Shown: piece after piece, positions 1,895 to 54,580 of the stretch
Position numbering within the stretch: the stretch's first letter is position 1
How the letters are laid out: the number at the start of each line of letters is the position of its first letter
Assembly: GCA_041661665.1 (NCBI GenBank)
Contig: JBAZTW010000004.1
Coordinates: forward strand, 5,121-69,120
Reading direction: 5' to 3'
Origin: Phycisphaerae bacterium
GTDB lineage: Bacteria > Planctomycetota > Phycisphaerae > Sedimentisphaerales > UBA12454
DNA length: 64,000 nucleotides
Notes under the pieces: model-generated
The model's input: the letters and a program-made list of their open reading frames with translations, nothing else
Told to the model about the DNA's origin: nothing
Databases searched by the model: none
Made by a program: the position numbers and the translations under genes

Positions 1895-1945
1895 GAATCT
1901 CATCGCCGAAGGCGATTCCATAAATCTTCAATTTTCAATCTTAAA
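1895..1945 (+). repeat. Hairpin+ATTCCA+heptamer-arm repeat (family A), empty copy
   Basis: tcatcgccgaaggcgattccataaatcttcaattttcaat; near-identical to 44641-44727 minus its insert. Confidence 0.75.
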
Positions 1946-15134: not shown

Positions 15135-15185
15135 GTAGGGTGGGCTCGCCTGTCCTGAGCTTGTCGAAGGGTCAGCCCACGCGGT
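15135..15185 (+). repeat. GTAG-type REP-like palindrome (family B) with nested insert
   Basis: gtagggtgggctcg[cctgtcctgagcttgtcgaagg]gtcagcccacgcgg; near-identical to 29435-29485. Confidence 0.85.
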
Positions 15186-29434: not shown

Positions 29435-29485
29435 GTAGGGTGGGCTCGCCTGCCCTGAGCTTGTCGAAGGGTCAGCCCACGCGGT
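29435..29485 (+). repeat. Family B REP-like palindrome with nested insert
   Basis: gtagggtgggctcg[cctgccctgagcttgtcgaagg]gtcagcccacgcgg. Confidence 0.85.
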
Positions 29486-40422: not shown

Positions 40423-40447
40423 GTAGGGTGGGCTCTTAGCCCACGCT
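40423..40447 (+). repeat. Family B REP-like palindrome, empty form
   Basis: gtagggtgggctcttagcccacgct. Confidence 0.8.
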
Positions 40448-41133: not shown

Positions 41134-41302
41134 GGCTGGGTGTGGAGCAGTCTAATCTTTAAGGTATCATTATTTTTTAGATGTCCATACCCAGCCGACT
41201 CCTCAGAAAACCGCGTGGGCTAAGAGCCCACCCTACGCAAACTGGATTCCCGCTTTCGCGGGAATGACAAGCTTGTAGGGTGGACAGCTTGCTGTCCACG
41301 CG
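41134..41302. repeat. Composite palindrome cluster in the capsid-adaptor gap
   Basis: 13-bp IR 41134-41196; family B copy on - (41211-41236); ctggattcccgctttcgcgggaatgac (41242-41268); family B copy on + (41275-41302). Confidence 0.8.
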
Positions 41303-43064: not shown

Positions 43065-43090
43065 GTAGGGTGGGCTCTTAGCCCACGCGG
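43065..43090 (+). repeat. Family B REP-like palindrome, empty form
   Basis: gtagggtgggctcttagcccacgcgg. Confidence 0.8.
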
Positions 43091-44640: not shown

Positions 44641-44727
44641 TCATCGCCGACCTGTCGCGTCGAAGCCTTTGGCGAAGACGGAAGGCGATTCCACAAATCT
44701 TCAATTTTCATTTTTCAATCTTCAATG
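44641..44727 (+). repeat. Family A repeat, filled copy with a 32-nt nested insert
   Basis: tcatcgccga[cctgtcgcgtcgaagcctttggcgaagacgga]aggcgattccacaaatcttcaattttca. Confidence 0.8.
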
Positions 44728-44970
44728 TTTCTCTACCCTTACTGGGGACTTGCGCGTTTTTATCGAAATTTGACCGAAAATTCTTTTATGCGTTTTTGTA
44801 AGTGCTTATTTGATATGGAGAAAAATTTTTTAATTTTTTTTATCCGCGCAAGTTTTTACTTGCGCAAATGGCTGATATTTTGTCATTTCGACCAAAATGA
44901 GTCCCGATTTTCGGGACGAATGAAGCGGAGAAATCTATTTTAAATCCCCCGTTTAATCTCACTATTTCCC

Positions 44971-44998
44971 TTGACAATCCCTACTTTTCGGATATACT
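44971..44998 (+). promoter_or_regulatory. Sigma70-type promoter for the PEP-CTERM genes
   Basis: TTGACA-N16-TATACT. Confidence 0.6.
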
Positions 44999-45171
44999 GT
45001 TTGTTTTGGGAAAAGAAAAAGAAGATTTTGAAGATTTTTGGAGGAAGGGAAAATGAAACACTTCGTTAATTCATCGTAAGAAGGTCACTGCGCACTTATT
45101 TTCGGTCATTCCCATGCAGATGGGAATCCACAATTAAATTTCACTAAACAATTTTCAAAGGACGGAGAAAT

Positions 45172-45978
45172 ATGTTAAAATTCAGTCTTGTGCGAAGTAG
45201 TCAGATTTTCTTGTTTTTGGTTATTTGGTTTCAAGTTAATGTATCCATAAATGCTCAAGTTGTGTATTCAAATAATTTCAACAATGGCACGGCATCGTTG
45301 TCAGATTTTACCATAAGGACGGTAGCGGGAAACATAGGAACCTACTCAGTTACTGCAGATTCTGGCCAACTCAAAATTGCCACTGGCAATACTACTCCTT
45401 GTTATGGTTTCGCAGTCATTAATACTGCAAACTTTGCTGCCCCCTACCAAACTACTCTAAAAAACAATTCCGGTCTGGTAAGCTGGTCATTTAATGTTTC
45501 AAATTTGGATGGCCAATGGAACAATTCTTTTTATTTTACACTGGCGAGCAATTCATCAGACCCATTGGTCTACACCTCAACCTCTTATGTATTTGCTGGT
45601 GGCGGGTATGTTGGCAACAGAATGATGATTTTCCGACAAGGATACAACCCAAGTGATCATACACATATTATTGATATCACAAATGGATTGCCTATAGGAT
45701 ACAATGGAAGCATTCGGATTACCTATGATCCCAAGACGGATATTTGGTCTCTTTATGGCGTATGGGGCAGTTCTTATGTTGCCCCGGAATTAGTAGCGAA
45801 TCTATTAGGGACTTGCCATGATAGTACGTACACAGGATTAAATTTACCATATATGGGGATGGGCGGTTCTACCTCAGGAATTGATTATTTTGATAATCTG
45901 ACAGTAAGTGTAGTTCCCGAGCCCGCAACAATTCTTTTACTCACCCTCGGCGGATTGGTTTTGCGAAGAAAAAAATAA
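45172..45978 (+). CDS. PEP-CTERM sorting domain protein
   Basis: Signal peptide; C-terminal VVPEPATILLLTLGGLVLRRKK. Confidence 0.88.
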   Translation: MLKFSLVRSSQIFLFLVIWFQVNVSINAQVVYSNNFNNGTASLSDFTIRTVAGNIGTYSVTADSGQLKIATGNTTPCYGFAVINTANFAAPYQTTLKNNSGLVSWSFNVSNLDGQWNNSFYFTLASNSSDPLVYTSTSYVFAGGGYVGNRMMIFRQGYNPSDHTHIIDITNGLPIGYNGSIRITYDPKTDIWSLYGVWGSSYVAPELVANLLGTCHDSTYTGLNLPYMGMGGSTSGIDYFDNLTVSVVPEPATILLLTLGGLVLRRKK

Positions 45979-46009
45979 AATATTAACAATTTTTGGAAGG
46001 AAGAAGAGA

Positions 46010-46618
46010 ATGAAGAAGAAATCGATAGTGGTCCTGTTAATTGGTTGCACAATGTCATTTCCGACATACGCTAATACCATAATAACTTTTAACACACCCG
46101 CAGTAGCATTCCAAGATGGTTATGGCCAAGGCAGGCCTTACGTTGAAGGCGACTATTGTATGTCAACAGTCAATACTCCTGGGAATTACGGTTCTATAAT
46201 AAGGTTCAATCCACTTACTCAGAATGCCCTAGTTCCAAATAATGGCACTGTACATATGGGAGTTACTTTGTTTGCAAATCCTTGGCTGCAAAAAACTGAT
46301 GGTGGTCCATTTAATCTAATCGGATTAGACCTCGCTGAATATAGCGAGTACACCAACTGGGTAAATAGCGTATCCATGGTGGGTTATCGTCAGGACGGAT
46401 CAACTCTCACTGCAACTCTTGCCATAGATAGAATTTTTGACGGATATGGTGGAGTTAACGATTTTCAGCATTATAATCTAAACTGGAAGAATCTAATACG
46501 AGTAGAATTTCACAGTACATGTTTTAGTATGGATAATATTGAAGTTCTAGCGGTTCCCGAACCGGCGACGATTCTTTTACTCACCCTCGGCGGGTTGATT
46601 TTAAGAAAAAAACGCTAA
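46010..46618 (+). CDS. PEP-CTERM sorting domain protein
   Basis: Signal peptide; C-terminal AVPEPATILLLTLGGLILRKKR. Confidence 0.88.
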   Translation: MKKKSIVVLLIGCTMSFPTYANTIITFNTPAVAFQDGYGQGRPYVEGDYCMSTVNTPGNYGSIIRFNPLTQNALVPNNGTVHMGVTLFANPWLQKTDGGPFNLIGLDLAEYSEYTNWVNSVSMVGYRQDGSTLTATLAIDRIFDGYGGVNDFQHYNLNWKNLIRVEFHSTCFSMDNIEVLAVPEPATILLLTLGGLILRKKR

Positions 46619-46636
46619 ACAAACAATCAAACCAAC

Positions 46637-46666
46637 AAAAAGGCCGGGCTAAAACCGGCCTTTTTT
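46637..46666 (+). terminator. Rho-independent terminator
   Basis: aaaaggccgg-gctaaaa-ccggcc-tttttt. Confidence 0.8.
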
Positions 46667-46729
46667 ATTTATTGCCTCAAAAGTAAAATCCCTTATAATC
46701 CCGGAAGATAAACTTATGGAAGGATAAAA

Positions 46730-47032
46730 ATGATGTATCCCGTTAGACTTTCTTGGTTTTATACCTATGTCTTAAAATGCGAAAAGACAGGTACTTTTTA
46801 CACGGGTTGCACAAATGACTTGAAACAGAGAATAGAACAGCATACAAAAGGTAAAGTCTGTTACACGAAACACAGATTGCCTATTAAGTTAATTTATTCT
46901 GAGGCCTGCTTAAACAAGGACGATGCGTATCGCAGAGAAAGATATTTAAAAACCGGAATAGGTAAAAGGTATATTAAAAACAGACTAAAGGGGTGGCTGA
47001 CTGATGGGATGAATCCCGTTAGACCTCTTTAA
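46730..47032 (+). CDS. Small GIY-YIG nuclease (UPF0213/YhbQ-like)
   Basis: 'YTYVLKC', 'FYTGCTNDL..RI.QH', 'YSE', 'A.RRE..LK.G.GK'. Confidence 0.85.
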   Translation: MMYPVRLSWFYTYVLKCEKTGTFYTGCTNDLKQRIEQHTKGKVCYTKHRLPIKLIYSEACLNKDDAYRRERYLKTGIGKRYIKNRLKGWLTDGMNPVRPL

Positions 47033-47110
47033 TATAATATATATGTTGAAAATAGTGAAAAGATAAACAAATTGTACAAATTAATAAATTTAATGGAGGT
47101 CTAACGGGAT
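47013..47110. repeat. 15-bp perfect inverted repeat (ATCCCGTTAGACCTC) around an AT-rich spacer; third direct copy at 46737-46748
   Basis: atcccgttagacctc 47013-47027 and gaggtctaacgggat 47096-47110. Confidence 0.85.
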
Positions 47111-47564
47111 GGAACAGTTTAAAATCGTCGATGACATTTTGGATTTCGCAATTGAAGGCGAGGTTGAGGCGCACAAATTCTATACCGACCTGGCGGCGAA
47201 AATGCCCGACAAAACAATGAAGCAGGTTTTTCTCGATTTCGCAGCAGAAGAACTTGGTCATAAAAAACTTCTCGAAGACGCAAAGGCAGGCAAAAAAGTT
47301 CTGCTCAAAAAAGAGCATGTCGCCGATTTGAAAATCGCCGAGTTCACCGTCGCAGTAAAACCGACGCCGAATATGAACTTCAAAGACGCTCTGATTCTGG
47401 CAATGCAGAAAGAGAAAAAAGCGTTTCAACTTTACACCAGACTTGCGGGATTGATGACCGACAAAACTGCCGCCGAACTTTTCGCCGCTCTTGCCCAGCA
47501 GGAAGCAAAACACAAACTCCGCTTCGAACTTGAATATGATGATGTCGTTCTAAAAGAAGATTAA
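47109..47564 (+). CDS. Rubrerythrin/ferritin-like protein
   Basis: Duplicated E..E/E..H diiron motifs ('EELGH', 'QEAKH'). Confidence 0.85.
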   Translation: MEQFKIVDDILDFAIEGEVEAHKFYTDLAAKMPDKTMKQVFLDFAAEELGHKKLLEDAKAGKKVLLKKEHVADLKIAEFTVAVKPTPNMNFKDALILAMQKEKKAFQLYTRLAGLMTDKTAAELFAALAQQEAKHKLRFELEYDDVVLKED

Positions 47565-47617
47565 TTTTTTTCTCTGTGAACTCTGCCTGTCCTGAGCGGA
47601 GTCGAAGGGGTGTCTTT

Positions 47618-48529
47618 ATGGCTGAAATTAAACTCTGGTTGAAAGAATTACGATTGCAGTTCTGCGTAGCAAGCGTGATGCCGGTGCTAATCGGCTCAGC
47701 TCTCGCTTATAAACAAATCGGCAATATAAATTATACGCTGGCTATCCTTGCGCTTCTGGCGACAGTCGCGTTCCAAATCGCATCAAATATCGCCAACGAT
47801 TATTTCGACCACCGCAGCAAAAATGATATTCTAAATGAAAACAGAACGCCGTTTTCAGGCGGAAGCGGATTGCTCCCAAAAGGCCTGATAGCCCCAAATA
47901 AAGCACTTATAGCCTCACTGCTGTTTTTCGCAATCGGAGCAAGTTTAGGAATTGCAATTTTAATTATCACAAAAAAACCTGCTGTGCTTGCACTGGGTTT
48001 AGCGGGAATTCTCGGCGGATTTTTCTACACCGCCGGGCCATTGAAACTCGGATACCGAACCACAGGCGAAATCATAATCGCCTTACTCTTCGGCATCCTG
48101 CCTGTTTATGGAGCGTATTACATCCAGACAAGCGTTTGGAATTTGATTCCTCTTTTGCCTTCGCTGGTCGTAGCCGTTTTGATATTTCTTGTGATATTCG
48201 CAAATGAGTTCCCCGATTTCGAGGCTGATAAAGCAGTCAACAAACGCACGCTCGTCGTAACTCTGGGCATAAACAAAGCGGCAATACTTTACAAAGCCGC
48301 ATTATTCATTCTCTTTTTTATCATTTGTATTTGTGGTGGAATAAATCTTAGCCCATCTGGCGGCGGAGTCTTGATAGTCGCACTAAACATATTGGGCGTG
48401 TATTGTTTTATAGCCGCTAATCCCAATAAATTAGCTCAAAAGAACTACACCACATTGAGCAAAGCAACAATCCTTTTACATACATTCGTCTGCCTTGCTC
48501 TTTTTATCGCGATACTAATTAGCACATAA
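47618..48529 (+). CDS. menA: 1,4-dihydroxy-2-naphthoate prenyltransferase (UbiA family)
   Basis: 'NIANDYFD', 'FYTAGP..LGY', 'NEFPD..AD....K.TL.V.LG'. Confidence 0.8.
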   Translation: MAEIKLWLKELRLQFCVASVMPVLIGSALAYKQIGNINYTLAILALLATVAFQIASNIANDYFDHRSKNDILNENRTPFSGGSGLLPKGLIAPNKALIASLLFFAIGASLGIAILIITKKPAVLALGLAGILGGFFYTAGPLKLGYRTTGEIIIALLFGILPVYGAYYIQTSVWNLIPLLPSLVVAVLIFLVIFANEFPDFEADKAVNKRTLVVTLGINKAAILYKAALFILFFIICICGGINLSPSGGGVLIVALNILGVYCFIAANPNKLAQKNYTTLSKATILLHTFVCLALFIAILIST

Positions 48530-48634
48530 CCCCTGCAATACAGGCAGTTTACCCGTATATACTGTTGTATGATGGGTCTTAAATAACATTGAATTTTCGT
48601 ATTGACATTCCGAATATTCAATGTTGGAAGTTCA

Positions 48635-49423
48635 TCACTTTCCAAGTCTGCTTGAGACATTTGTTCTATATTCGCTCTGGCCGATTTTGCCTTCGCCACG
48701 ATAACCTTTTGCGGCAATCTCCTGCTGCAGATAGCCGATTCGGTTTTCAGGATTTGGGTGCGTCGATAAAAATTCAATCGTTCGAGAACCGCTTTGCCTT
48801 TGCAGAATTTCCATCGTCTCAGTCATTCCAAAAGGTGTGTAGCCTGCCTTAACCAAATAATCCAGGCCGATTTGGTCTGCCTGACGCTCGTGTTCTCTGC
48901 TGTACGACATTCCCTGAAGCTGAGTGATAATGCTCGCGGCTGTGCCTGCCATTCCCTCACCGACTGCGCTTACGCCTGCGTTGATTATCAAATCTCTGCT
49001 CATTGTTACGGCAGAGTGCCTTGCGGTTACGTGCGCTGTTTCGTGTGCCAGAATGGACGCAAGCTGCGCCTCGGTGTTCAACACTTTCAGCAGACCTGTC
49101 GTAATATAAATATATCCGCCCGGCAAAGCAAATGCGTTGACTGTATTGGAGTCGATGGCCTTATAACTAAACCCTTCGGTCGGCGTATGGCAAACACGAG
49201 CGATACCCTGGCCGACAGAACCAATATAACTTTGAAGCTGCGTATCTTTTACGCTCTGGCCGAGTTCCTTTTCAACCTGTTTGGAATACTCAAAACCCAT
49301 TTGCTTTTGCTCTTCCGGGCTGTAGAGATTAAACTCATTTTTGCCAGTTACGGGATTAACCTGACAGCCGGCAAAGATAAAACTCAAGCCTGCTGCCGCT
49401 AAAAACAAATATAAATTTTTCAT
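48635..49423 (-). CDS. M48 family metallopeptidase lipoprotein
   Basis: Lipobox FAGC; 'NAFALPGG', HEXXH (HETAH), 'YSREHERQAD', 'STHP'. Confidence 0.9.
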   Translation of the reverse strand: MKNLYLFLAAAGLSFIFAGCQVNPVTGKNEFNLYSPEEQKQMGFEYSKQVEKELGQSVKDTQLQSYIGSVGQGIARVCHTPTEGFSYKAIDSNTVNAFALPGGYIYITTGLLKVLNTEAQLASILAHETAHVTARHSAVTMSRDLIINAGVSAVGEGMAGTAASIITQLQGMSYSREHERQADQIGLDYLVKAGYTPFGMTETMEILQRQSGSRTIEFLSTHPNPENRIGYLQQEIAAKGYRGEGKIGQSEYRTNVSSRLGK

Positions 49424-49581
49424 AAAATCCCTTTCTAAAATTCGATTTCTATTCCATATTAAGTAGCCTTATGTCGCCAAATGTCAAGTTGGAAAAAAAT
49501 TTGTTACTTTTTGCAAAAAAACAGCCACTAACTAATTTATATTGAAATGCACATCATATATAAGATAATTACCCACTTTCT

Positions 49582-50976
49582 ATGGAAAGACTCCGGTTAA
49601 TGCGTAAAAATGTATCGTTGCTGATACTTGCTGTAAGCCTTGTTATGGTCGGCGGTTGTAATACGCCGAAAGAGCAGCTATTGACGTTTGACAGGCACTT
49701 TGAATCATCCGATTATCAGGCTGCGGCAGCGTTCGCTGAAAAAAACATCAAAAACAAAACAAACCCAGCCCGTGAGGATTTACTCTGGACGCTTCAGGCG
49801 GCAGCGGCAAAAAGAGCCTTAAAAGATTACGCCTCCAGCACAAGCGACTTCGACAAGGCCGAGGAATTTTTGAAGTATTACGACCTTCGCTTCTCCGCGG
49901 CGGACGATATGGCCGCGACGGCAGTCAACGACAATATTATTCCGTACAAGGGGCAGGAATACGACGGCGTAATGGTGAATGTATATAAAGCCTTAAATTT
50001 CCTGGCAGAGGGAAATTACGACCTTGCAAAAGTGGAATTCAACAGAGCATTAGACCGGCAGAGAAGAAGCAAAGAACACTTTGAAAAGGAAATAGCCAAA
50101 ACAAAAGAAAGCATCGACAAGGCAAAATACGCCAGCCTCATAAACGACCCGAATACGCAAAAAACTATTCAGAGTCAATATCCAGAACTTAATGAATACG
50201 AGCCTTACAGAGATTACGTCAACCCATTCGTAACCTATTTAGCATCGATATATTTCAACGCAACCGGCGACATCTCGACCGCACGCAATCTGCTCAAAGA
50301 AACCTGCGGCCTTGTACCGGAAAATAAAAGAATAGCTGATGAATTCGCGGAAACGGAAGCGGCTATTTTCACCGGTCGGACAATCAAAAATACCGTATGG
50401 GTTATTTTTGAAAATGGTTTGGGGCCGAGGAAAGATGAGTTCAGAATCGACCTGCCGCTTTTCATAGTAACAGACAGAGTGCAATATGTCGGCATCGCCC
50501 TGCCGAGGCTTACATACAGAGACATCGCGTTTCCATATTTGCTGATTGACGCTAATGACGCCAAATACAACACAACCGTCGTCGGCGATATGGACAGAGT
50601 TATAGGCGCAGAGTTCAAAAAAGATTTTAACGGAATTCTGGCAAGAGCGATAATTTCGACAACGGGCAAAGCCCTTACACAGTACGCGATGACCAACCAG
50701 AATTCCAATGAAGCGGATATTGGTTCGATTATGGTAGCCATATATTCATTCCTCACCAACGCCGCTGATGTGCGAATCTGGACTGCGCTGCCTAAGGATT
50801 TCCAGTTCGCAAGATTGCAAATACCTGAAAATAAAGAGCTTATGATAACACCCGCAGGCGGACAGCCTATTGACATTCACCTGCCGAATTGCGATAATGT
50901 ATTGGTCTATATTAAAATCACACAAAGGGGTTCGACACCGATTTATGAAGTGATTCCTTTTGGAAAAAGATTTTAA
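49582..50976 (+). CDS. COG3014-family lipoprotein
   Basis: Lipobox VGGC (start probably 49600); 'Y.G..YD...N.YKAL', 'AD.R.W..LP..FQ'. Confidence 0.7.
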   Translation: MERLRLMRKNVSLLILAVSLVMVGGCNTPKEQLLTFDRHFESSDYQAAAAFAEKNIKNKTNPAREDLLWTLQAAAAKRALKDYASSTSDFDKAEEFLKYYDLRFSAADDMAATAVNDNIIPYKGQEYDGVMVNVYKALNFLAEGNYDLAKVEFNRALDRQRRSKEHFEKEIAKTKESIDKAKYASLINDPNTQKTIQSQYPELNEYEPYRDYVNPFVTYLASIYFNATGDISTARNLLKETCGLVPENKRIADEFAETEAAIFTGRTIKNTVWVIFENGLGPRKDEFRIDLPLFIVTDRVQYVGIALPRLTYRDIAFPYLLIDANDAKYNTTVVGDMDRVIGAEFKKDFNGILARAIISTTGKALTQYAMTNQNSNEADIGSIMVAIYSFLTNAADVRIWTALPKDFQFARLQIPENKELMITPAGGQPIDIHLPNCDNVLVYIKITQRGSTPIYEVIPFGKRF

Positions 50977-50988
50977 GGAAATACTGAT

Positions 50989-51426
50989 ATGAAAAAGTTT
51001 TTGCTGATGATGTTTTTTACTGTTTCTGTTTTTGTTTTTTGCGGCTGCACCCCCAGCGATAAGAGGGTTAATGCTGCAGTCGGCGTCAAAAGCGACAACG
51101 TCGCGAACAATATCCTGACAAGGCCATTTTACGGAGCATATAGTTTGCTTGCCGGTGAAGGCATTGACATCAAGGATGTAAAAACGTGGAGAAATGATGC
51201 CGGCTTTATGGAGCTTCAGGTCAGTGGCCGCAATCGCGCCGTTTATACCAAACAATTTGAATACAGAGTTGAATGGCTCAATGATAAGGGCGTGCGGATA
51301 GAGGCTCAACAGACTGTCTGGCTGCGGGTTTCAGCAAAGGCTATGTCTGATTTCAGCTTCACCGCCACGGCGCCATCTAAAGATGCCGTTGACTTCAAAA
51401 TTAACACAAGAAAAGCGAAAGGATAA
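50989..51426 (+). CDS. YcfL/DUF1425-like lipoprotein
   Basis: Lipobox; 'F.YRVEW....G', 'A.APS..AVDFKI'. Confidence 0.65.
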   Translation: MKKFLLMMFFTVSVFVFCGCTPSDKRVNAAVGVKSDNVANNILTRPFYGAYSLLAGEGIDIKDVKTWRNDAGFMELQVSGRNRAVYTKQFEYRVEWLNDKGVRIEAQQTVWLRVSAKAMSDFSFTATAPSKDAVDFKINTRKAKG

Positions 51427-51430
51427 AACT

Positions 51431-52042
51431 ATGAAAAAATTAGCAATGTTATTTATCGCAACGGCTTTTATGGCTGGCTGCGAAAAAGTTACGAAAATTG
51501 ACACGACAAACGATGCGGGAAAACAGGTTATGGCTCTGGATTACAGAGACTTCGACCAGGCAGCAAGCGAAATGATTCAATCGCTGCTTCATTCCGGCTC
51601 TCTGAACAGACAAGACGGCGGTAAATATGTTCTGACCACAAGCGTTGTCACAAACGACACGATGCAGAGAATCGACACTGATTTGCTTACTTCCAAAATA
51701 GAAGAAGACCTCAGCAGCAGCGGGCAGGTTGTTATGACCTCCGCGGTCGGAGGCAAGGATAGCAACCGCGACTCTATGGTCAACGATATAAGAGATGTCC
51801 GCGACTCAGCGAAAGGCGATGAATTCGACCGGAACACTATGCCGAACAAAGGCACGCTCATTGCTCCGGATTTGAGCCTGTCGGGAAAAATATATCAGAA
51901 TAATCTTCGCTACGACAAAAAAAATCAGCAGGTCGAGTATTATTTCCAGTTGAAATTAACAGACCTGAAGACCGGCAAACGCTTCTGGCAGAAGGAAGTT
52001 TTAATCGGCAAACGCGGCAGTAACAAAACTGTTGCGTGGTAA
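51431..52042 (+). CDS. lpoB: Penicillin-binding protein activator LpoB
   Basis: Lipobox MAGC; 'LDYRDF..AA..M..SL', 'N.TMQRID', 'YYFQLKL.DL.TG...W'; follows ycfL-like gene. Confidence 0.75.
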   Translation: MKKLAMLFIATAFMAGCEKVTKIDTTNDAGKQVMALDYRDFDQAASEMIQSLLHSGSLNRQDGGKYVLTTSVVTNDTMQRIDTDLLTSKIEEDLSSSGQVVMTSAVGGKDSNRDSMVNDIRDVRDSAKGDEFDRNTMPNKGTLIAPDLSLSGKIYQNNLRYDKKNQQVEYYFQLKLTDLKTGKRFWQKEVLIGKRGSNKTVAW

Positions 52043-52063
52043 TTCAATATCAGGGTAAATAAA

Positions 52064-52963
52064 ATGAAAACGATAAAATACATACTAATGATAATAGTTT
52101 TAGCTGCTGTAATCTCTATTACAGCGACAGATGCTATGGCTCGCGGCCACGGTCATACATCTGTCAGCATCGGCGTGGGGTTCGGCGGCCCTTCTTATTA
52201 TGGCTCTTATTGGTATGGACCGCGACATCATAGGCACTATGATATGGGCTTCTATTATGGCTACCCTTATTATCCCTACTATGATTATCCTGTGGTTGTC
52301 GAAAGGCCGGTCGTCGTCGAAAGACCCGTTGTAATCACTCAGCCGGCGCCAGTAGTAGTGTCGCCGCCGGCGCCGGTAGTGGAAAGGTTAGTGGATGGTA
52401 GAGCTAAAGACGAAGTTTCCAGCAGTCCGCAGACTAACAACCAGACTAACACCCAGACTACTGTAATCTGGATTAAAAACGATAATGGTTCGCAGACGCC
52501 TGTAACGCTTCGGCAGCAGGGAGCGGGCTTTGTCGGGCCATCGAATGAATATTATTCAACATTGCCGACGGAAGATATGCTTAAAGCTCAGTATGGCTTG
52601 AAATCCAATGCGCAGTCTGCTGGTACGGCTGCTCCAGCGGTTAAATCCGAAAGTGTTGTGATATTCATCGACAATGGCAACGGCTCAAAAACTCCGATTA
52701 CTCTGAAAAAAGAAGGTATGAATTACATCGGGCCTGCGGGCGAAAAATATACCACCCTGCCGACCGAAGAACAGCTAAAGGCTTTGTACGGCACAGCCGC
52801 AGACACAAACCAGACTGATTTTAAGGTCGAAATTACAAAAGCTGACGGCAGAAAGGTTGTCGTTGCCCTGAAAAAAGAGGGAACGGAATTTGTCGGCCCA
52901 AAAGGTGAACGCTATCCAACTATGCCTACCGAAGAACAATTAAAGCTAATCTATGGCAAATAA
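52064..52963 (+). CDS. Secreted protein with Gly/Tyr-rich low-complexity region and three ~46-aa repeats
   Basis: Three copies of 'L..EG..F.GP.GE.Y.TLPTEEQLK..YG'. Confidence 0.75.
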   Translation: MKTIKYILMIIVLAAVISITATDAMARGHGHTSVSIGVGFGGPSYYGSYWYGPRHHRHYDMGFYYGYPYYPYYDYPVVVERPVVVERPVVITQPAPVVVSPPAPVVERLVDGRAKDEVSSSPQTNNQTNTQTTVIWIKNDNGSQTPVTLRQQGAGFVGPSNEYYSTLPTEDMLKAQYGLKSNAQSAGTAAPAVKSESVVIFIDNGNGSKTPITLKKEGMNYIGPAGEKYTTLPTEEQLKALYGTAADTNQTDFKVEITKADGRKVVVALKKEGTEFVGPKGERYPTMPTEEQLKLIYGK

Positions 52964-53002
52964 ATAAAACGTAATACTTTAGCCAAGTGTCAAATACGAC
53001 TT

Positions 53003-53162
53003 ATCATTCCCGCGACCCGTGGTGAGCATAGTCGAACCAAAGCGGGAATCAAGTTGTAGGGTGGACTCTTCCTGTCCGCCATAGCCTTGGCGACGGCGGA
53101 AGCCCACGCGGTTGTCATTGCGAGCGCAGCCTGCCATGAGCTTGTCGAATGATCGCAATGAC
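53003..53162 (+). repeat. Array of three different palindromes, each with a nested insert
   Basis: tcattcccgc[..]gcgggaatc; gtagggtggactctt[..]agcccacgcg; gtcattgcgag[..]tcgcaatgac. Confidence 0.8.
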
Positions 53163-53203
53163 AAATGACATTTTTAGAGGTTGCCTTAATTTTTGATTTT
53201 CTT

Positions 53204-54580
53204 CTAATGCTCTGCCGGCTCGCCAAGTATTTTTTCTATTTCAGCAAGCTGCTTATTGAGTACGTCCTTTGTTTTCGCCTCGATGTTAAGCCTCAAAAAC
53301 GGCTCGGTATTGCTCGGCCTGCAATTAAACCACCAATCCTTAAACTGAATTGTAATGCCGTCAAGGTCGTCTGCTTCGCCCTGACCGAACTTTTTGCTCA
53401 GTTCCTTCATCATCGCCTCTTTATCATCGACGGCAAAATTGATTTCGCCGCTCGAAAAATATCTTCGCAATGGCTTGACAAGTTCGCTAATAGGCTGCGA
53501 TGCCCTGCTTAAAACGTTGATTAAATGAACAAGCGTTATAAACCCTGAATCCGCGAAGAAATTATCGCGGTAGTAAAAATGACCGCTCAACTCGCCGCCG
53601 AAAATCGCCCTTGCCGTGCGCAGCGTCTTTTTCATAAACGAATGCCCCACTCTTTCGCGTCTCGGCACGCCGCCATATTTCAAAACTTCCTCACGAACGA
53701 CCCAACTGCTTCGCAGGTCATAAACTATCGCCGCATTTGGCGTTTTTTCGAGAAAATATCTCGCCAAAAGAGCCGTCAGAATATCGCATCCGATAGTCTC
53801 GCCCTTTTCGTCAACCATAATCAGCCTGTCGGCATCGCCGTCAAAACATATTCCAACATCAGCTTTGCGCTTTTTCACCGCGGCCTTAAGCTCGGTCAGA
53901 TTGCTTTCAACCAACGGATTAGGCTCGTGCTTAAACGTGCCGTTGTGTTCAAAATTCAGCCTGATAATCTCAATACCCAACCCCTCAAAAATCAGCGGCG
54001 CCATTTTGCCGGCCATTCCATTCGACGCGTCAATAACCATTTTCAAAGGCTTAACCTTTGCATCGAGAAATTTCAGAATATGCTGCTTATAAGCCTCTGT
54101 AATATCATATTTTTCAATCGCGCCATCCATAACACCGCGCGTATGAAGCAATGCGGTCGATATATGCTTTATTTCCTTAAGGCCGGTATCCTGCCCGACA
54201 GGCTTGGCCTCAAGACCGGAAATTTTAAAACCGTTATACTGTGCAGGGTTGTGCGATGCCGTAACCTGAACGCCGCCGCAGGTGCCGAGATGATTTATCG
54301 CGAAATAAATCTGAGGCGTATCAATCATTCCGATATCTATTACATTCGCGCCTGCTGCGTTCATACCAGCTATCAGCGCATCGGCCAAACCCTGACTGTG
54401 CGTCCGCATATCGTGGCCGACACATAAACTCTGACGATTCGCCAAACCACGTTCATAACCCCGCAAAAGCGACCGCAAAAATGATGCTGTCGCGTTGCCT
54501 ATCTTCCACGCGGCATCTTCGTTTAACTGGTCGGGATAAAGTCCTCGAATGTCATAAGCCTTAAAAATTTTCGGGTCCAT
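53204..54580 (-). CDS. Phosphomannomutase/phosphoglucomutase
   Basis: 'IFKAYDIRG', 'TASHNP', 'FDGDADR', 'GELSGH'. Confidence 0.93.
   Translation of the reverse strand: MDPKIFKAYDIRGLYPDQLNEDAAWKIGNATASFLRSLLRGYERGLANRQSLCVGHDMRTHSQGLADALIAGMNAAGANVIDIGMIDTPQIYFAINHLGTCGGVQVTASHNPAQYNGFKISGLEAKPVGQDTGLKEIKHISTALLHTRGVMDGAIEKYDITEAYKQHILKFLDAKVKPLKMVIDASNGMAGKMAPLIFEGLGIEIIRLNFEHNGTFKHEPNPLVESNLTELKAAVKKRKADVGICFDGDADRLIMVDEKGETIGCDILTALLARYFLEKTPNAAIVYDLRSSWVVREEVLKYGGVPRRERVGHSFMKKTLRTARAIFGGELSGHFYYRDNFFADSGFITLVHLINVLSRASQPISELVKPLRRYFSSGEINFAVDDKEAMMKELSKKFGQGEADDLDGITIQFKDWWFNCRPSNTEPFLRLNIEAKTKDVLNKQLAEIEKILGEPAEH

Follow-up and report, generated by a model that had tools for sequence, protein, structure and literature searches.

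Small hairpin repeats nested in the loops of other intergenic repeats of a Phycisphaerae genome, and a candidate GIY-YIG partner for one of them

How does a hairpin of 23 to 32 nt come to lie in the loop of another, unrelated repeat, when copies of that repeat are also present without it? This question is raised by a 64,000-nt stretch of DNA from a Phycisphaerae bacterium (contig JBAZTW010000004.1, positions 5,121 to 69,120; C4:5121-69120 of the genome that we call G000), which is referred to here as the window. It contains two small modules, E1 and E2, both gene-less, inside the hairpins of other repeats. The genome comprises 2.31 Mb on 98 contigs, with 44% G+C and 95% completeness. For one protein of the window, the closest relatives were found in metagenome-assembled genomes of Phycisphaerae/Sedimentisphaerales (Planctomycetota), the best being 'Planctomycetes bacterium GWC2_45_44' with 89% amino-acid identity. 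Two sister species from the same genus, G001 and G002, were used for the comparison of orthologous sites. In the reading that we prefer, with a probability of about 0.5, the repeats form two layers, where guests (E1 and E2) have been integrated without duplication into the loops of hosts and where E1 is partnered with a GIY-YIG nuclease acting on single-stranded DNA (ssDNA).

The sequence-only reading of the window had described empty and filled copies of two hairpins, here called A and B, and we found both pairs to be present as described. A occurs empty at 1901-1916 and with a 32-nt insert at 44651-44682, and B occurs empty at 40423 and 43065 and, from 53056 onwards, with a 30-nt insert (53071-53100). 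Both insertions of E2 are base-exact, lie directly 5' of AG and show no duplication. A further insert, described as 22 nt long, occupies real sites, but its actual unit, E1, measures 23-24 nt (15149-15171, 29449-29471, 47586-47609, 53016-53039 and 53130-53152). The hosts and guests in the window are as follows, with ^ marking the insertion point.

1901..1916, + strand: host hairpin A, empty (CATCGCCGA^AGGCGAT), which folds as a 6-bp DNA hairpin (z -2.6)
44642..44689, + strand: host hairpin A filled with E2
44651..44682, + strand: E2 guest in A, 32 nt, CCTGTCGCGTCGAAGCCTTTGGCGAAGACGGA, with a CCTG head, a 6-bp bulged stem, a GAA/GAA internal loop, a GCC/GGC stem and a TTT loop
40423..40448, + strand: empty B hairpin (GTAGGGTGGGCTCTT^AGCCCACGCGG), a GTAG-headed repetitive extragenic palindrome (REP)
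41211..41236, - strand: empty B hairpin (REP)
43065..43090, + strand: empty B hairpin (REP)
15135..15184, + strand: composite of REP B and E1, with E1 at 15149-15171
29435..29484, + strand: composite of REP B and E1, with E1 at 29449-29471
53056..53111, + strand: REP B, with a G-to-A change in the stem, filled with E2
53071..53100, + strand: E2 guest in B, 30 nt, CCTGTCCGCCATAGCCTTGGCGACGGCGGA
47572..47585, + strand: host heptamer-type repeat CTCTGTGAACTCTG, just past the stop codon of the open reading frame (ORF) 47109..47564
47586..47609, + strand: E1 guest, 24 nt, CCTGTCCTGAGCGGAGTCGAAGGG
53003..53050, + strand: NTS/SRM-type hairpin with the degenerate head ATCATT and E1 in its loop (53016-53039, head CCCG)
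53114..53162, + strand: palindrome GTCATTGCGAG...CGCAATGAC with E1 in its loop (53130-53152)
41245..41268, - strand: empty NTS/SRM-type hairpin GTCATTCCCGCGAAAGCGGGAATC, matching the NTS consensus quoted in PMC11893778

The genome as a whole was scanned for empty and filled sites with no preset motif: 18-mers repeated at least four times were split mid-way, and their halves were sought 14-100 nt apart. In this census, of the kind that the sequence-only reading had proposed, two insert families dominated, E1 and E2. Exact empty/filled pairs were obtained for at least seven host families, with a boundary ambiguity of 0-1 nt and no duplication. Overall, at least 12 unrelated host types carry guests at the apex of their loops and without target duplication, which upholds the idea of tiny gene-less hairpin elements in the loops of other repeats. 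The junctions across the genome are listed here host by host.

Host B, CTC^TTAG or CTCTT^AG: 41 empty copies; guests E1 and E2
Host GTCATTCCCGCGA^AAGCGGGAATC: 16-18 empty copies; guest E1
Host CAGAGCCGCGACAG^TAATGGAGCGG: 14 empty copies; guests E1 and E2, at the same point
Host CCCCAGCTTTA^TGCTGGGG: 13 empty copies; guest E2
Host GTCATTTCGACCGT^AGGGAGAAATC: 5 empty copies; guest E1
Host A hairpin: guest E2
Host CTCTG^TGGCT, heptamer-type arrays: guests E1 and E2
Host E1 itself, GAGCTTG^TCGAA: guest E1

We found no conserved target word or tetranucleotide at these junctions: any of the four bases may end the left flank, and the right flank is variable. The insertion points are alike in their location, either at the apex of a hairpin loop or at a phased position within a heptamer array, and the orientation of the guest relative to its host is constant within each host family. 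In tests of the flanks, a perfect-stem metric gave 26% versus 3.7% for random sequence and a metric of bridging pairs did not discriminate, both being too crude to quantify loop targeting. The claim of loop targeting is therefore based on the explicit junctions, host by host. These junctions place the guests, integrated at the DNA level and without duplication, at the apices of host loops, in phase within heptamer arrays and within their own loops.

Host B illustrates how often empty and filled forms occur together. Besides the 41 exact empty cores there are about 14 with other short loops, and the filled forms comprise 10 copies with E1, about eight with E2, three with a second E1 nested in the first (B+E1+E1) and two in which E2 contains a further hairpin of 27-28 nt. 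In B, E1 replaces one T of the loop (net +24 nt), so this junction is not perfectly clean. Nesting reaches up to three levels and includes guests inside guests. The third guest, of 27-28 nt (GGTTTCTTCGCAGCCTTGCGAAGTAGAA), was seen in the TT loop of E2 inside B at C7:54322 and C61:407, again with one T replaced and with three levels of nesting.

E1 follows the scheme CCTG-NNN-TGAGC-(3-4 nt)-TCGAA-N'N'N' and is present in G000 in 73-78 copies with 52 distinct sequences. The motif gave 49 matches in this genome, while the reversed pattern, which served as the control, gave none. Its hairpin is supported by covariation: over the three variable pairs and the T-A pair of the stem, 89.6% of the cells are paired, and double changes were found in 53 cells versus 23 in shuffles, a value that 0 of 500 shuffles reached. 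In slid registers the signal collapses. An invariant GA/GA separates the stem from a constant G-C pair and probably forms tandem sheared G.A pairs. E2 (CCTGTC...CGGA, 30-32 nt; 27 copies with 19 distinct sequences) is built of CCTG, TC, a stem, a 3x3 purine-rich internal loop, a 3-bp stem, a T-rich loop, the returning stem and GGA. Four fully compensatory versions were found of its outer helix (CGCC/GGCG, CTCC/GGAG, CGTC/GACG and CGGC/GCCG), and likewise four of its inner helix (GCC/GGC, GCT/AGC, GTC/GAC and GTT/AAC). Comparison of the two structures thus reveals one common plan, in which the 4-nt head CCTG precedes a hairpin with a purine-rich internal loop.

Copies of the guests are often located just after stop codons or before start codons, and their orientation with respect to transcription is unbiased (13 sense and 15 antisense copies). 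In Rfam, no family for the elements was found by a gathering search of the whole window or by a permissive search of 52900-53250, and a text search of the literature with the letters of the elements returned nothing relevant. We also weighed a hammerhead-like ribozyme and rejected it, as the conserved letters are unlike the hammerhead core and 23 nt are too small for it. About 20 copies of E1 in G000 lie inside long ORFs or annotated coding sequences, as is also seen on the Methylomonas plasmid NZ_CP014361 (11951-11979). The 24-nt form would add eight codons, reading for example PELVEG or VVSLSNH, in such putative in-frame insertions.

The host layer consists of GTAG-headed REPs with a REP-associated tyrosine transposase (RAYT), GTCATT-headed NTS/SRM hairpins with Ssn-type GIY-YIG genes, heptamer arrays and other palindromes. 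The heptamer tandem arrays are abundant, in the window (44690-44725) as well as genome-wide, with units such as TTCAATT/TTCAATC/TTCATTT, TAACTGA, CAAAGGCA and CTCTGTG; they offer insertion sites for E1 and E2 and resemble arrays of cyanobacteria and Beggiatoa. Host B shows the features of a REP, namely a GTAG head, a short palindrome (GTAGGGTGGGCTCTTAGCCCACGCGG) and many dispersed intergenic copies (41 exact cores and variants). Only one protein of G000 passes the NCBIfam RAYT model NF047646, scoring 183.9 bits where the cut-off is 80; its gene, at C49:4267-4626, lies between inverted B-type hairpins (GTAGGGTGGACAG..CTGTCCACGCGG). A RAYT-like gene at C9:19710-19886 is preceded by two copies of a second GTAG REP (GTAGGGGCAGACCTGTGTGTCTGCCC, about 29 copies). 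The NTS-type host GTCATTCCCGCG(A/C)A(A)GCGGGAATCCAG equals the Neisseria NTS consensus CGTCATTCCCGCGMAVGCGGGAATCYRG, with 26 copies matching all but the first C. Eight NTS loops hold E1, two of them with a second E1 inside the first. The GIY-YIG genes C1:64224-64448 and C17:11614-11829 are surrounded by GTCATT-type palindromes (GTCATTTCGA..GAGAAATC). Upstream of the latter gene (C17:11300-11600), palindromes of the GTCATTCCGA type carry E2-like hairpins (GTCCTGCGTAGCCTTGGCGGAGCAGGAC) in their loops.

Empty and filled states also differ between relatives; the sequence-only reading had proposed to look for such differences between strains. The site at 47586, just after a stop codon, holds the host heptamer repeat in all three congeners and occurs in three states: with E1 in G000, empty (CTCTG^TGGCT) in G001 and with a 32-nt E2 in G002. 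This E2 is identical to three E2 copies elsewhere in G000. The A site with E2 is also filled in G001, with one substitution, so that this insertion predates the split of G000 and G001. Moreover, filled hosts (B+E1, B+E2 and NTS+E1) behave and propagate as composite units in their own right. As such units are present or absent as a whole, a count of copies suggests more guest insertions than have occurred independently. In G001, different repeats take the place of the cluster at 53000-53165. In the three-repeat mosaic to which this cluster belongs (52964-53190, 3' of the ORF 52064..52963), the counterpart G001:C137:43022-43126 has an empty GTCATTTCGAC..GAGAAATC and an A-like TTCGCCGCAGGCGAG instead, and this replacement indicates a fast turnover of intergenic repeats.

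Beyond G000, the E1 pattern was found in 29 of 41 related genomes, with 0-44 copies each, and in 64 of 301 Planctomycetota genomes, multicopy in distant families, while the control gave about 10 singletons. Among viral contigs, 41 of the 93 pattern matches had complementary stems, compared with about 5% expected by chance, and one such contig carries E1 inside an NTS loop with an allele different from that of NTS+E1 in G000. A BLAST search of plasmids with three E1 variants gave marginal E-values only; two of the matches proved to be exact 24-mers. The 24-mer of 47586-47609 is found on plasmid p5 of Planktothrix agardhii and, in two copies, on a plasmid of Methylomonas, with unrelated flanks, and is thus shared by three phyla.

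In a distant planctomycete (G245:C21:25478-25594; L111 976-1095), five E1 units follow each other head to tail with an exact period of 24 nt and no spacer, and a spurious ORF reads this array as PVVSPVEP repeats. Cuts in front of every CCTG could turn an array of this type into free monomers of unit length. Another genome (G033:C24; L110 951-3065) has a 2.1-kb segment with a 165-aa PIN-like ORF and a 383-aa ORF, bounded by inverted repeats of about 40 nt that each contain E1 (tcatttgtttcctcCCTGTGGTGAGCTTGTCGAACCAattgcggcc); the segment may be a mobile cassette. No transposase was revealed at the E1 clusters in G045 and G033.

Which enzyme could act on E1? G000 has four small single-domain GIY-YIG genes. 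In all seven orthologues of one of them (C7:5808-6080), an E1-type hairpin precedes the start codon by no more than about 75 nt, and mostly by 10-50 nt; two of the seven have a covariant CGAGC/TCGAG core. At other GIY-YIG loci, E1 was present within 1.5 kb in 1 of 23. We further examined 76 independent metagenome loci with relatives of 44-63% identity. E1-type hairpins lie beside the gene in 55 of these, and on both sides in inverted orientation in 36, whereas the background is 0.035 per 130 bp. The protein belongs to the Pfam family GIY-YIG, and its nearest structures are those of UPF0213 (1zg2, 1ywl). Judged from this arrangement of genes and hairpins, E1 is the predicted cognate hairpin of a clade of UPF0213-like single-domain GIY-YIG proteins, whose gene is bracketed by inverted E1-type hairpins. 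The gene association would therefore define a new specificity class beside NTS/SRM-Ssn. In G000 itself, no gene flanked by inverted E1 was found. The window contains another of the four GIY-YIG genes, which does not belong to this clade.

46730..47032, + strand: small single-domain GIY-YIG ORF of 100 aa, outside the E1-flanked clade (35% identity to it) and with no E1 adjoining

The sequence-only reading had looked to HUH/Y1 enzymes as the movers. A RAYT-like or IS200/IS605-type tyrosine transposase would recognise the CCTG head and the hairpin and move the unit as ssDNA into loops. Y1 enzymes such as those of IS200/IS605 are known to cut and rejoin ssDNA without leaving a target duplication. 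The gene search that it had called for yielded five Y1 (Y1_Tnp) genes in G000, so the lineage does not lack HUH transposases, an absence that had been named as counting against the proposal. Three of the five have no assigned repeat, a few inverted E1 doublets were seen, and the combination of a 4-nt head and a hairpin parallels the GTAG and CGTC REPs (PMC3733652). However, neither E1 nor E2 flanks any of the five genes, and the sole true RAYT pairs with host hairpin B and not with the guests. There is no conserved tetranucleotide 5' of the insertions, and the unit is a single hairpin instead of two ends. Across the 41 related genomes, the copy number of E1 does not follow the number of Y1 genes (Spearman rho -0.06), and the 12 genomes free of E1 have on average four of them, but it does follow the small GIY-YIG genes (rho 0.54, p 3e-4; statistics that ignore kinship), one clade of which is also flanked by inverted pairs of E1-type hairpins. 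A Y1 mover of the guests consequently appears unlikely to us.

We judge it just as unlikely that no dedicated transposition has taken place, and that a few ancient chimeras, formed by template switching or recombination between hairpins, were later spread by gene conversion among host copies and, joined to the host REP or SRM, as composites. Some of our observations would fit such a course of events. At the two orthologous sites of B+E1 (15135..15184 and 29435..29484) the whole composite is absent from G001 and G002, all eight NTS+E1 copies share the TGG/CCA allele, the A+E2 site is conserved in G001 and one loop base is replaced at some junctions. On the other hand, chimeras of this origin do not readily explain that the same unit boundaries recur across 12 or more unrelated hosts as well as in heptamer arrays and in the unit itself, that the identical 24-mer has unrelated flanks in three phyla, or that E1 in the NTS loop of the viral contig has a different allele.

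Spread via RNA by retro-insertion, reportedly suggested for the small dispersed repeats (SDRs) of cyanobacteria, or selection for an RNA function such as a regulatory or stabilising transcript hairpin, is very improbable: copies do lie often next to stop or start codons and G000 has one reverse-transcriptase gene, but the orientation is unbiased (13 to 15), Rfam gave no match, and the GNA-type mini-loops and tandem G.A pairs are characteristic of hairpins that are stable as DNA. Furthermore, the partner enzyme family acts on ssDNA and not on RNA, as stated in passages of PMC11893778.

If guests are integrated into host loops with a GIY-YIG nuclease as the partner of E1, as we prefer to think, their movement may be pictured as follows. 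The partner nuclease would bind the E1 hairpin in ssDNA and nick the strand at a set distance of a few bases before it, where the 4-nt head has its 5' edge. Each nick would thereby mark the 5' end of a unit. Where copies lie in tandem or are nested, as in the 24-nt array of G245, successive nicks would mark the 3' end as well and so free single strands of unit length, which would then be joined to the only other ssDNA that is exposed, in the loops of extruded hairpins. A separate, second activity would be needed for this step, because the GIY-YIG nuclease alone cannot join DNA.

Several points weigh against this reading. To our knowledge, GIY-YIG nucleases have no strand-transfer or ligation activity. 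Orthologues of the E1-flanked clade are absent from G001, G013, G026 and G036, which are rich in E1 (16, 44, 29 and 29 copies, respectively). The hairpins beside the genes have TTCG or RTG heads, compared with CCTG in the dispersed copies of G000, and the correlation with GIY-YIG genes is not corrected for phylogeny. For E2, we found no partner gene. E1 on its own is not expected to be stable when judged by nearest-neighbour energies, and its structure therefore rests on the covariation. Finally, the three states of the site at 47586 could stem from gene conversion between copies of the host repeat.

A wider version of the proposal is that E1 is a pan-bacterial mobile module of 23-24 nt, cut by the GIY-YIG enzyme four bases upstream of the hairpin foot and joined as a strand into loops, with E2 as a sister module. 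We regard it as doubtful. If true, DNA would here be moved by means of a nuclease and without a transposase, and E1 would be the smallest mobile element for which a partner enzyme has been identified. Given their exact positions in host loops, the changes of state between sister species and the link of E1 to a GIY-YIG gene, E1 and E2 look like some of the smallest mobile DNA known.

The closest analogues of E1 and E2 are the cyanobacterial SDRs and the Ssn/SRM system. The SDRs of Nostoc (Elhai 2008, Genome Res 18:1484) are reportedly gene-less, 21-27 nt long, with compensatory hairpins, and are said to occur inside themselves, in heptamer arrays and in other small elements; their mechanism is reportedly not established, and they are said to be confined to one cyanobacterial subgroup. 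With the SDRs as so reported, E1 and E2 share the size class, the lack of genes, compensatory changes in the hairpin, self-nesting and nesting in heptamer arrays and other small elements, while E1 differs in belonging to another phylum and a different sequence family and in its occurrence in many phyla. As a proxy for a direct comparison with SDR1-8, the E1 core was sought on the 354-kb plasmid pNPUN01 of Nostoc punctiforme, where it occurred once, the same as the control and hence by chance. E1 is also unlike the SDRs in that a partner gene family (GIY-YIG) has been identified and that the hosts are REP and NTS/SRM hairpins. The point concerning SDR5 and HIP1 is confirmed in a passage of PMC13756078.

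In the Ssn system, as described in passages of PMC11893778 (Chenal et al. 2025), the enzymes bind their own hairpin as ssDNA and in no other form, cutting a few nt upstream of it. Inverted hairpins of 20-50 nt, which are also dispersed genome-wide, stand there on either side of a small GIY-YIG gene (NTS-ssnA-NTS), and they have an orientation, with a short conserved head on the upstream side; in these respects the portrayed system is like E1. True NTS-consensus hairpins (26 copies) and Ssn-like genes are present in G000 as well. Unlike SRMs, E1 has no GTCWY head but a CCTG or TTCG head and a TGAGC/TCGAA core, and it does not match the SRM pattern printed in that part of the article, HGTCWYN(0-2)YYVSBRHN(0-5)WNVSBRGN(0-2)RNCYNB, whose loop is N(0-5) only. 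Its partner protein differs in being nearest to the UPF0213 structures. Nesting of hairpins in one another's loops is not described in the passages of PMC11893778 concerned.

Other systems are more distant. The REP/BIME/REPIN-RAYT systems share with the guests the tetranucleotide head with a hairpin and the intergenic mosaics (PMC3116915, PMC3733652), and host B is a classical REP with its own RAYT. In contrast, the guests are half the size of REPs, have another head and no link to Y1 genes, and are located inside REPs and not beside them, with empty targets still present. Di Nocera et al. (PMC3733652) noted REPs inside other palindromes; for A. variabilis and H. neapolitanus, two of the three examples given, they reported that REP-free target palindromes were not found. 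Elements of the IS200/IS605 type (IS608, ISDra2) resemble the guests in the lack of a target duplication, the dependence on hairpins and the single-strand logic, but require two hairpin ends that differ from each other as well as a target word of fixed sequence, a tetra- or pentanucleotide; E1 and E2 showed neither. Miniature inverted-repeat transposable elements have terminal inverted repeats and target-site duplications, whereas E1 and E2 are single hairpins with an unpaired 5' head and no duplication.

Overall, our data indicate that hairpin repeats of 23-32 nt can come and go at fixed sites and build up the layered intergenic mosaics of many uncultured bacteria. Such mosaics give rise to spurious ORFs, with peptides such as PELVEG, VVSLSNH and PFDKLRA, and they hide repeats from pattern-based censuses, as an NTS with E1 in its loop is missed by the published SRM pattern. 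E1 and its GIY-YIG protein would be a second pair of hairpin and nuclease with a different recognition motif, which could widen the toolbox for cutting ssDNA. Moreover, E1 and E2 offer a small and well-defined substrate, with empty and filled targets, for studying how REP-, SRM- and SDR-like repeats multiply.

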